Of a DNA stretch of 64,000 nucleotides, positions 4,816 through 7,800 are shown in pieces; the first letter of the stretch is position 1; each line of letters starts with the position of its first letter. Where the stretch lies: positions 186,603-250,602 of the forward strand of contig OZ242208.1 of the NCBI GenBank assembly GCA_965206325.1. Direction: 5' to 3'. The DNA is from Gammaproteobacteria bacterium (GTDB lineage: Bacteria > Pseudomonadota > Gammaproteobacteria > Tethybacterales > G965206325). Both the position numbers and the translations under genes were made by a program. The notes beneath the pieces are model-generated. The model saw only the letters and a program-made list of their open reading frames with translations, ran no database searches and had not been told where the DNA came from.

Positions 4816-7800
4816 TCAGAATCCAATGGACAGCGAACCCGCCGTCAACAGTTTATCGGAATCAAATCCGTAGGCGCCGCTGACCTTAATCAGCACATTA
4901 TCCATCGGACGAAAGCCGACGCCGAATGCCATCGCCTCCCGACTTTGATAATTGCCGACACCGACCGACACTCCGAATTTATGCCCCTGCGGAATCTCCA
5001 TCGTTGACATTGCACCCGACATTGCTATCGCCTCATCAAGCCGGTCAATATCGCCCTCAATCCGCGAAAACGCCTGATTAACTTCCGCGCCGAAATCCGC
5101 AAACCCGATTGAACCCGGCACAATTTGCGCTTCAAACACGCCGCCGGTTTGGGCTGCCTGCGCTATTTCATCGGAAAAGCGGCGCGCCGCCGACCCGCGC
5201 ACAACAATCGCATTCGGCGCAATCTTTTCAGCGGTAATAGCGCGGTCTCGGACAATTTCCGTTGATACCGTATTTACTTGCAGAACGCCGCCGACGGGCG
5301 CGTCTACCCATTCAGCGTCAAAGTCGGCATCGCTGGATTTTGCGAGAATTTGCCCTTCCTGTCCGCCAGCCATTAATCCTTCGCCGTCTTGACCGTCCGC
5401 TCCGGCGACACCTTGCGCGCCATCTGCGCCGTCTTGACCGTCCGCACCGGCGACACCTTGCGCGCCGTCTGTGCCGTCTGCGCCGTTTTGACCGGCCGCC
5501 CCGGCAACACCTTGCATTCCTTGTGCGCCTTGCGCACCTTGCGCACCGTCTTGGCCATTCGCACCGGCAACGCCTTGAATTCCTTGGTCGCCTTGCGCGC
5601 CATCTGCGCCGTCTTGACCGGCCGCACCGGCAACGCCTTGAATTCCTTGATCGCCTTGTGCGCCTTGCGCGCCAGCTGCACCGTCTTGACCGGCCGCACC
5701 GGCAACGCCTTGAATTCCTTGTGCGCCTTGGTCGCCTTGTGCGCCTTGCGCGCCATCTGCGCCGTCTTGACCATTCGCACCGGCAACGCCTTGAATTCCT
5801 TGGTCGCCTTGTGCGCCTTGCGCGCCGTCTGCGCCATTTTGACCGGCCGCTCCGGCAACGCCTTGCATTCCTTGTGCGCCTTGCGCACCTTGCGCGCCAT
5901 CTGTGCCGTCTTGACCGGCCGCTCCGGCAACGCCTTGAATTCCTTGTGCGCCTTGCGCACCGTCTTGACCGGCCGCACCGGCAACACCTTGCATTCCTTG
6001 GTCGCCTTGTGCACCTTGCGCGCCATCTGCGCCATTTTGACCGGCCGCTCCGGCAACGCCTTGAATTCCTTGGTCGCCTTTTGCGCCTTGCGCGCCGTCT
6101 GCGCCGTTTTGACCGGCCGCTCCGGCAACACCTTGAATTCCTTGGTCGCCTTGTGCACCTTGCGCACCGTCTTGGCCATTCGCACCGGCGACGCCTTGAA
6201 TTCCTTGTGCGCCTTGCGCACCGTCTTGACCGGCCGCTCCGGCAACACCTTGAATTCCTTGTGCGCCTTGCGCGCCGTCTTGGCCATTCGCACCGGCGAC
6301 ACCTTGCATTCCTTGTGCGCCTTGGTCGCCTTGCGCACCGTCTTGGCCATTCGCACCAGCGACACCTTGCATTCCTTGATCGCCTTGGTCGCCTTGCGCA
6401 CCGTCTTGGCCATTCGCACCGGCGACACCTTGAATTCCCTGCTCGCCTTGCTGACCCGGCGTATTGAGCATATCCATCACTGAGGAACTCAAGTCATCGG
6501 CAGTGATTGCGCCGTTTTTTATATCCGCTGAACCGATGGATTCCGCCCGAATATGCGTCCGCGCTTGCCGCTCGTAAATGGTATTATCAGAACCCTCCAT
6601 CGGCGTGCCGTCTTCATTCATGCGCCTGACTTTCATGCCGTCCGCGCCTTCTACAAAATCGCCGCATTGGGCGTTATCGGCCGACCCGCAAATGCCGGTT
6701 TCGGTCGTGAAGGAACCCGCCCGCATTTCGCCATTCGTCAGAATCCGACCGGCTGTGGCGTGCCTAAAACTTCCGGACGAACTGGTTTGGATGTTGCCGC
6801 TGTCGAATCCGCTGCCGCCGCTGGTCCTGATGTGGCCGCTCTCTCTGCCGCTGCCGCCGTCGGTGGTGATGCGGCCGCTTTGGATGCCGCCGCCGCCTTG
6901 GGTGCGGATGTTGCCGTTTTGGATGCCGCCGCCGAGGCCGTTGGTTTCGATGCTGCCGCTTTGGGTGCCGCTGCCGCCGCGGGTGGTGATGCGGCCGCTG
7001 TCTCTGCCGCTGCTGCCTCTGGTGCTGATGCCGCCGCTTCTGAAGCCGCTGCTGCCGCTGGTGCTGATGCCGCCGCTCTCTCTGCCGATGCCGCCGCTGG
7101 TGCTGATGCCGCCGCTGTCATCGCCGTCGCCGCCGCTGGTGCTGATGCTGTCATCGGCGTCGAGATGCGCGCGCTCGATCGTATCCATCACTGAGGAACT
7201 CAAGTCATCGGCACCGATGGATCCCGCCCGAATATGCGTCCGCGCTTCCCTTTCATAGTCGCGGTTATCGCCGAAAGTCGTGCCGGTGCGCCGAACTTTT
7301 AAGCCATCGCTACCCTGCACAAAATCGCCGCATTGGGCGTTATCGGCCGACCCGCAAATGCCGGTTTCGGTGTCAAGTGATCCCGCCCGCATCTCGCCGT
7401 CAGTCATAATCCTGCCGGAAGTTGCATGGTCACTAGTACTGCTGTCAGTAGATATCTGCCCGCTTTGAATGCCGCTGCCGCCGAAGGTGACGATGCGGCC
7501 GCTTAAATCGCCGTCGCTGCCGCTGGTGCTGATTTGGCCGCTGCCGTCGCCGCTGGCGCCGTCGGTGCTGATTTCGCCGCTTCGGACGCCGCTGCTGCCG
7601 AAGGTGACGATGCGGCCGCTTAAATCGCCGTCGCTGCCGCTGGTGCTGATTTGGCCGCTGAGGAAGCCGCCGCCGCCGCGGGTGCTGATGATGCCGCCGC
7701 CGGCGTCGATGTCGCCGCTGCCCGCATGGTGCGCCAGCGACGGCATCGGCAAAGCGAGTGCAAGGGCGAGAATCGCCGCAACGAATTTTCCGCCGCTAAT

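Follow-up and report, generated by a model that had tools for sequence, protein, structure and literature searches.

A gene for a collagen-like surface adhesin was found on the minus strand of a 64,000-bp stretch of DNA (hereafter the window) from a gammaproteobacterium of the order Tethybacterales (contig OZ242208.1, positions 186,603 to 250,602). The open reading frame (ORF) extended over window positions 4816..8064 and comprised 1082 codons, which were divided, in the order of translation, into a leader, two head modules, a collagen-like stalk, a single fibre repeat, a neck, and a membrane anchor (Table 1). Residues 537–896 carried Gly at each third position in a single run of 120 Gly-X-Y triplets, and the run was matched by the Pfam family Collagen (PF01391) with an E-value of 4.2e-45. 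Window positions 5262..6483 were also spanned by long ORFs on the plus strand and in other frames, which were regarded as by-products, because the collagen repeat is stop-free. An exact look-up of the protein from two candidate starts returned no record.

Table 1. Features of the adhesin gene and its surroundings, in window coordinates
Feature	Coordinates	Strand	Description
Upstream conserved start	7924..7964	-	ATG at 7964 and 14 codons, MKNIAQNSPIFPRK; preceded by GGAGA
Poly-G tract	7901..7923	-	23 nt (C on the plus strand) in the 5' coding region; candidate slipped-strand phase-variation site
Internal ATG and leader	7732..7899	-	In-frame ATG (MLPAKP), conserved leader LLYGVYDAFAGA, signal-peptide-like KFVAAILALALALPMPSLA, then HH
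Head module 1	7171..7731	-	Seven 13-residue Gly/Ser repeats (SGxIxT), two-Cys knob GICGSADNAQCGDF, then THIRAGSIG
Head module 2	6457..7170	-	Same build, at least eight 13-residue repeats, ending ...ITADDLSSSVMDMLNTP
Collagen-like stalk	5377..6456	-	120 uninterrupted Gly-X-Y triplets, Pro-free, net charge -35; ~103 nm if triple-helical
Fibre repeat	5296..5376	-	Single copy of the 28-29-residue type, LMAGGQEGQILAKSSDADFDAEWVDAP; core starts 7 residues past the last triplet
Neck	5089..5295	-	Between repeat and anchor; short repeats of the AITAEKIAPNAI type; conserved IVVRGSA and IxPGSIGFADFG
Anchor	4819..5088	-	Coiled-coil lead-in helix and four-strand YadA-type membrane anchor; stop codon 4816..4818
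Terminator hairpin	8141..8170	-	13 pairs, then a T run; ends the upstream paralogue; conserved in alleles
Paralogous autotransporter	8244..10816	-	Same head type, Ala/Thr/Gln-rich non-collagen stalk, same anchor; split into 769 and 88 codons
Other homopolymer tracts	373-385, 1898-1911, 2288-2304 (purL); 25565-25579; 27312-27323; 36838-36853 (uvrB 3' end)
Other homopolymer tracts	51730-51744, 52526-52536, 52843-52853		G or C homopolymers

Domains of the adhesin and composition of the stalk

The anchor was recognized when the C-terminal 186 residues were scanned alone. YadA_anchor (PF03895) was then matched with an E-value of 1.1e-11 and a score of 45 bits (cut-off 22.7), a match that was missed by the whole-protein Pfam scan. 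The same residues were aligned to the solved YadA anchor (PDB code 2LME) with an E-value of 3.7e-8, and the C-terminus of the protein was aromatic (…SLSIGF). An AlphaFold2 (AF2) model of this region had a predicted local distance difference test (pLDDT) score of 38.2 and was read for the order of secondary structure only, which was a hairpin, a helix, and four strands. The trimeric-type anchor began 96 residues downstream of the collagen run, and the fibre repeat directly adjoined the run. The neck segment was kept in the anchor relatives P0002, P0004, and P0005, with small in-frame indels between alleles. The first-pass annotation of the sequence had placed a collagen region between the head and the YadA anchor of a trimeric autotransporter type of protein, in agreement with the matches to PF01391, PF03895, and 2LME.

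Head module 1 was delimited by 39-nt tandem repeats and by the 13-residue spacing of its motif. In both head modules the two-Cys segment was conserved after the repeats and was followed by THIRAxSIG. The heads were matched by no Pfam family and by no PDB sequence, and YadA_head (PF05658), YadA_stalk (PF05662), and ESPR (PF13018) gave no Pfam match in the 536 N-terminal residues at E-values up to 10. These three modules are common among trimeric autotransporters and are not family-defining. The heads of YadA and BadA are beta-rolls of 14-residue repeats, compared with 13-residue repeats here, and the head type of this adhesin is, as judged by sequence, undescribed among autotransporters. The AF2 model of head module 2, built on a four-sequence alignment, was unusable (pLDDT 36.6); one strand was drawn per repeat. 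The hydrophobic segment of the leader and the HH that follows it were read by eye and were kept in the alleles and in the relatives P0011 and L003; the start codon is uncertain owing to the poly-G tract.

The stalk contained no Pro, no Arg, and one Lys, as the first-pass annotation had stated for Pro and Lys. With 34 Asp and 2 Glu residues, the net charge was -35 per chain, and stabilization by charge pairs is impossible because a single Lys faces 36 acidic residues. The most frequent triplets were GAQ (30), GVA (17), GQD (13), GIQ, GDQ, and GAA (10 each), GAD (9), GAN (6), and GMQ (5). The X position was occupied by Ala in 56 of the 120 triplets, Gln in 18, Val in 17, and Ile and Asp in 10 each, and the Y position by Gln in 57, Ala in 27, Asp in 24, and Asn in 10. 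Only 7 Pro residues were present among the 971 residues of the whole mature protein, so that the avoidance of Pro extends beyond the stalk.

If triple-helical, the 360 residues at ~0.286 nm each would span ~103 nm, close to the earlier estimate of about 100 nm. The run itself had been correctly noticed; its 119 triplets became 120 with the terminal GEG, and the start given for it, position 5290, took in the 27-residue linker at 5296..5376. The accompanying statement that bacterial collagens are usually stabilized by Pro or by charges was incomplete, as classes stabilized by Thr/Gln hydration and Ala-rich classes are recognized (PMC8968730). A designed GAPGSQ collagen (PDB code 8ZXL) was returned as a PDB match and was uninformative.

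Allelic length of the stalk and the fibre repeat

Six alleles were compared, taken from one metagenome assembly of the European Nucleotide Archive, ERZ25069326, in which the neighbouring permease gene was present on at least 10 contigs. Several of the contigs with this permease gene were circular genomes of ~1.96–1.99 Mb. Five alleles occupied the same locus (the window, L004, L006, L007, and L009), and one, L001, occupied a second locus. The stalk comprised 120 triplets in the window, 154, 212, 296, and 212 in the four other same-locus strains, where the gene follows hemJ, and 110 in L001, which corresponds to a predicted range of ~94–254 nm if helical. The number of head modules varied from one to three, and all length changes were in frame. 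The strains were co-assembled; the same-locus alleles were all open through the anchor and were each assembled independently at 12–39x coverage.

None of the 1104 triplets of the six alleles was interrupted. The first two bases of the Gly codon, GG, were kept in 1104 of 1104 cases, whereas the third base was free (C 488, T 372, A 237, G 7), which indicates that the spacing of Gly was selected and the length of the stalk was not. The residues at X and Y varied between alleles.

The second-locus gene L001 (6637-10558), located between serS and a DAO-family gene, encoded a collagen autotransporter with three heads. Its N-terminus differed (MKNGTIKAAAV...), and the same type of N-terminus was found in allele L009. 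A frameshift (+1 T) was located precisely at the junction of collagen and repeat in L001, and the collagen run itself was open.

The adhesin locus is a variable island. In L005 (11263-16428), four genes replaced the adhesin at the locus of window positions 4816-8064, and two of them gave matches to PDC-M33, a candidate defence system (component A at E 3e-28, component B at E 1e-9). In L008 (11391-15285), the same locus was occupied by genes with an HNH domain and a P63C domain. All relatives with this head type came from sample ERZ25069326 alone.

The segment between the stalk and the neck proved to be a copy of a widespread repeat. When the C-terminal 186 residues were compared by HMMER with 1.84 billion representative proteins, 525 matches were obtained, most of which covered query residues 2–30 only, often in several copies per protein. 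The matched proteins were tail-fibre-like and carried PHROG tail-fibre families, the Gp10_C baseplate domain, and collagen repeats. The repeat, 28–29 residues long with the consensus xPxGGTxGQVLxKxSxxDYDxxW, was thus present in hundreds of tail-fibre-like metagenomic proteins, in line with the resemblance to linkers of phage-type fibre proteins that had been suggested for this segment. The matched proteins contained 78 Gly-X-Y runs of 6 triplets or more, and after 44 of these runs the repeat came within 20 residues. It began exactly 7 residues past the run in 41 of these 44 cases, as in the window, and all 8 cases on viral contigs showed this spacing. On a 176-kb phage contig, a fibre with nearly Pro-free runs ended in GEGVPTGGTEGQALVKASATNYDTEW, for which the counterpart in the window was GEGLMAGGQEGQILAKSSDADFDAEW. 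The start of the consensus, [VIL]-P-x-G-G, was changed to L-M-A-G-G in the window copy.

A profile of the repeat (A3) matched one solved entry, the C-terminal-domain construct of Legionella Lcl (PDB codes 8Q4E/8QK8), with an E-value of 8.2e-7. In Lcl the motif stands directly after the collagen repeats and was disordered in the crystal of the C-terminal domain (PMC11162425). No Pfam model exists for the repeat, and the PHROG families concerned (22680 and 33012) are of unknown function; phrog_33012 matched the repeat with an E-value of 3.2e-4. The PHROG tail-fibre matches to the adhesin were restricted to the collagen run and the repeat. PHROG 26246, which matched the collagen part as well as the anchor part, may represent a small family that combines the two. 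Among the collagen-like proteins retrieved, a set chosen by similarity to a Pro-free query, 36 of 142 had less than 2% Pro, and Pro-free runs of 40–64 triplets were frequent among the metagenomic members. Among phage records with YadA-type anchors, gp20 of Pantoea phage AAM22 was rejected as a coiled-coil protein without Gly-X-Y.

Known relatives and the surrounding genome

The closest known architecture was that of the VtaA proteins of Glaesserella (Haemophilus) parasuis. In strain Nagasaki, each of the 13 VtaA has 2–8 Pfam collagen repeats immediately in front of its YadA anchor (PMC6211672, PMC5422950), a precedent that contradicts the claim that autotransporters lack collagen stalks. The first-pass annotation would have given up its claim for an architecture that was common and already characterized; it has been characterized, in VtaA, but it is not common. 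As in the adhesin of the window, VtaA heads are followed by collagen of the PF01391 type and by the anchor, and the genes are multi-copy and strain-variable, with collagen-repeat numbers that differ between paralogues (PMC6211672, PMC5422950, PMC6755704). However, Pro is present in the collagen repeats of VtaA, as in AGPTGPQGPAGPTG (PMC6211672), and VtaA possesses ESPR and the YadA head and stalk modules (PF13018, PF05658, PF05662), none of which was detected here. In the window adhesin, the collagen instead forms one Pro-free block without interruption, after which comes the repeat of the phage and Lcl type. The adhesin shares the VtaA architecture, and membership of VtaA is not claimed. Thus, collagen before a YadA anchor is already known, and what differs here is the uninterrupted, Pro-free run with acidic charge, the phage/Lcl-type repeat, the unannotated heads, and the allelic length series.

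The trimeric surface adhesin Lcl of Legionella pneumophila likewise has a collagen-like stalk, and the same 26-residue motif (TGQVLAKSNDLDFNTMWVD...) stands after its collagen repeats. The number of the Lcl repeats varies between strains. Unlike the window adhesin, Lcl is a type II secretion substrate with an N-terminal helix anchor, its repeats are Pro-rich, GPQGLPGPKGD(K/R)GEA, and it bears a C-terminal DUF1566 head that binds glycosaminoglycans (PMC11162425). The NCBIfam model adhesin_Lcl (NF046116), whose alignment reached residue 927 of the window protein, scored 181 bits, below its cut-off of 500 for membership, and no DUF1566 match was found in Pfam scans of the adhesin. What the two proteins have in common is confined to the collagen region and the repeat after it.

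The collagen-like tail fibres of phages (EPclA, L033, L011) are also trimeric, and in the metagenomic fibres the Gly-X-Y run is followed 7 residues on by the same repeat. Fibres L033 and L013 were nearly Pro-free over 52 triplets, with Pro at 0.01 of the X and Y positions. These fibres differ as virion parts without a signal peptide or membrane anchor. The triple helix of the Escherichia coli prophage fibre EPclA, next to a C-terminal trimerization module, is proven (PMC3368898). In EPclA, Pro occupies about half of the X positions, and the capping domains are different ones (PfC). The streptococcal proteins Scl1 and Scl2 resemble the adhesin as bacterial surface 'lollipops' with a collagen stalk without hydroxyproline, and the NCBIfam model SclB matched the stalk with an E-value of 1.3e-54, below its cut-off. 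By contrast, these Gram-positive proteins are LPXTG-anchored, carry their trimerizing head at the N-terminus, and are stabilized by charged residues and some Pro (PMC8968730). YadA and BadA share the anchor fold and the head–stalk–anchor logic, and the range of 94–254 nm, if helical, spans the 240 nm of BadA (PMC6555100), whereas YadA and BadA have coiled-coil stalks with neck and connector domains.

The nearest relatives of the anchor were the neighbouring paralogue, several proteins from sample ERZ25069326, and a single locus in a metagenome-assembled genome (MAG) of Candidatus Poriferihabitaceae; their stalks consisted of other, non-collagen short repeats. When 185,579 species genomes were scanned with a profile of the anchor, one locus was returned, without collagen. 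In the MAG, the gene (L003, 8138-10282) encoded the same leader motif (PLYGVHDA) and anchor, and a stalk of ~35 copies of the 15-residue repeat AVxTEHIxDxQVTxDKL. A scan of JGI metagenomes gave no matches. In a word-indexed search with nearly the full protein, no combination of PF01391 and PF03895 was found among 8000 scored candidates, a result swamped by collagen and not evidence of absence, and the same type of search with the C-terminus gave 3 matches only. Two papers on Burkholderia/Ralstonia 'collagen-like adhesins' concerned other types of protein.

Between the conserved upstream start and the conserved leader stood a poly-G tract, which was 23 nt long in the window, 18 in L004, 24 in L006, and 22 in L007. 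The upstream ATG, its Shine-Dalgarno sequence, and the encoded peptide were identical in L004, L006, and L007. The ORF was in frame with the upstream ATG in L007 only; in the window the distance modulo 3 was 2, and an in-frame ATG was located directly after the tract. The relative P0011 had a related N-terminus, MEHYIAQNSPISPRK...LLYGVYDAFAGA, without a G tract. The tract has the appearance of a slipped-strand phase-variation site, and expression of the adhesin may be switched by it.

Ten G or C homopolymers of 11–23 nt were present in the 64 kb, against ~0.02 expected by chance from a rough base-composition estimate, and all were within coding regions, several of them in housekeeping genes such as purL and uvrB, and were read as Gly4–8 or Pro3–4. 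The same sites carried tracts in other strains, with lengths that differed by 3 nt, in frame, or by 1 nt. In purL, the G17 tract at 2288-2304 put the last ~85 codons out of frame in the window, whereas the G16 tract of other strains was in frame; single-base tract lengths in these assemblies are therefore unreliable. The genome-wide tracts could be assembly errors, tolerated slippage, or a real feature of the genome.

The collagen gene was its own transcription unit, as judged from the terminator between it and the paralogue. The split of the paralogue was due to a 1-nt deletion near 8522 relative to L004 and L009 (GGCGC instead of GGCCGC), which was found in the window only, and the paralogue was intact in six other strains (788–884 residues). 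The neighbouring genes included purL, an ABC transporter, hemJ, the paralogous autotransporter, secD, and priA. No phage genes were found near the adhesin, the surroundings were housekeeping genes, and the gene was not part of a phage or prophage structural module. Elsewhere in the window, positions 29536-31170 on the plus strand matched the GmrSD_N restriction-endonuclease domain (E 2.7e-32) and represent a probable type IV restriction gene. The rpoC (53304-58694, minus strand, 1796 codons) and rpoB (58704-63341, minus strand, 1545 codons) genes were far longer than the proteobacterial norm, and RpoB shared 65–66% identity over 61% of its length with its nearest named relatives, MAGs of Burkholderiales and Betaproteobacteria; on this evidence the proteobacterial lineage appeared to be an unplaced one. 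The Neisseria uptake sequence was absent from the window, and no tRNA or Rfam matches were found in it.

Proposed assembly, alternative explanations and significance

The gene probably encodes a type Vc surface fibre in which the stalk is a collagen-type triple helix instead of a coiled coil and acts mainly as a length-tunable spacer. In the type Vc model, the barrel forms first, the passenger is exported as a hairpin, and the stalk folds from its membrane-proximal end (PMC6555100). Following that model, three anchors would form a 12-strand barrel, from which the passenger would emerge C-terminus first. The neck and the fibre repeat, held in register by the barrel, would nucleate the triple helix, which would be zipped from C to N during export. 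The heads would fold last and would be placed at the tip as the binding part, ~100 nm out here and 94–254 nm out across the alleles. Since the run has no Pro, the slow step of prolyl isomerization would not be needed outside the cell. Stability would be provided by hydration and by Ala at X and Gln at Y, which host–guest peptide work has shown to be favourable among the non-imino residues there. Self-sticking of such a strongly acidic rod would be unlikely. VtaA offers an analogous case, in which collagen repeats before the anchor can be displayed and are functional (PMC6755704).

Several points weigh against this explanation. The triple helix is a prediction for this sequence, and the single-chain AF2 models were unusable. 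The charge of -35 per chain, the lack of Pro and, one Lys apart, of basic residues, and the failure to find a characterized counterpart make the stability of the helix uncertain. Of 333 copies of the repeat, 276 were without at least 3 Gly-X-Y triplets at the 7-residue spacing before them, and tandem copies occurred away from collagen. Because of these tandem copies and the disorder of the repeat in the Lcl crystal, its nucleating role is a conjecture. As the upstream start is out of frame in the window, this allele may also be poorly expressed.

It is unlikely that the collagen region is itself the binding part, mimicking or binding the collagen of a host such as a sponge. Such a role would agree with VtaA2, which without its collagen repeats attached less to collagen while other substrates were unaffected (PMC6755704), and with the only anchor relative in the genome collection, whose family, Candidatus Poriferihabitaceae, is named for sponge-dwelling. 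However, the composition of the stalk is unlike that of animal collagen, its sequence and length are free between strains with Gly alone fixed, and the nearest sequence relatives of the run-plus-repeat cassette are phage fibres. Host-collagen binding or mimicry is less likely given this composition and the free variation at X and Y, and the length polymorphism fits a spacer better. It is improbable that the Gly-X-Y region is a flexible, acidic, disordered tether or another polyproline-II-type assembly and not a triple helix, even though Pro and charge pairs are lacking, the negative charge is high, and no confident model was obtained. An invariant Gly with free length is a requirement of a triple helix and not of a disordered tether, which has no need of a spacing kept in 1104 of 1104 triplets over varying synonymous sites; moreover, the chain is trimeric at its C-terminal end through the anchor, and Pro-poor Gly-X-Y runs with the same downstream repeat occur in phage fibres.

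A silent or decaying gene, or one distorted by the assembly of its repeats and without present function, is a very unlikely explanation. It would account for the frame mismatch between the window allele and the conserved upstream ATG, for the frameshifts in the neighbouring paralogue and at the collagen/anchor junction of L001, and for the loss of the adhesin gene in two strains. Against it, the frame stayed open over 3.2 kb of a repeat array in which any slip by other than a multiple of 3 would close it, and this was so through the anchor in all five independently assembled same-locus alleles and through the collagen run in L001. An in-frame ATG follows the tract, and the 'off' state may be an artefact, since single-base homopolymer errors occur elsewhere in the assembly.

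The triple-helical spacer may also be viewed more broadly, although this extension is tentative. On this view, a phage-fibre-type cassette, made up of the Pro-free run and the 28-residue repeat, would have been placed as the stalk in a type Vc autotransporter. As an element so far unannotated, the repeat would set the register at the C-terminal end of prokaryotic collagen helices in general, in phage fibres, Lcl, and the adhesin; the Pro-free run would zip from C to N outside the cell without isomerases or energy; and its length would be reset by in-frame recombination between repeats, as in the natural range of 94–254 nm within one community.

If the stalk folds as proposed, it would be a triple helix of up to 296 triplets without imino acids or charge pairs, and as such a test of which features suffice to stabilize a helix; the six natural alleles differ almost solely in length. 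For type V secretion, the adhesin would provide a passenger with a predictable and alterable folding direction and nucleation point, and it suggests a reason for the avoidance of Pro. For annotation, the C-terminal boundary of many collagen runs, prokaryotic and phage, can be recognized by the widespread unnamed 28–29-residue repeat, and a head type without family assignment is exposed. In the ecology of the organism, the length variation, the gene loss, and the hypermutable tract point to strong diversifying pressure, of which phages or a host are the likely sources.

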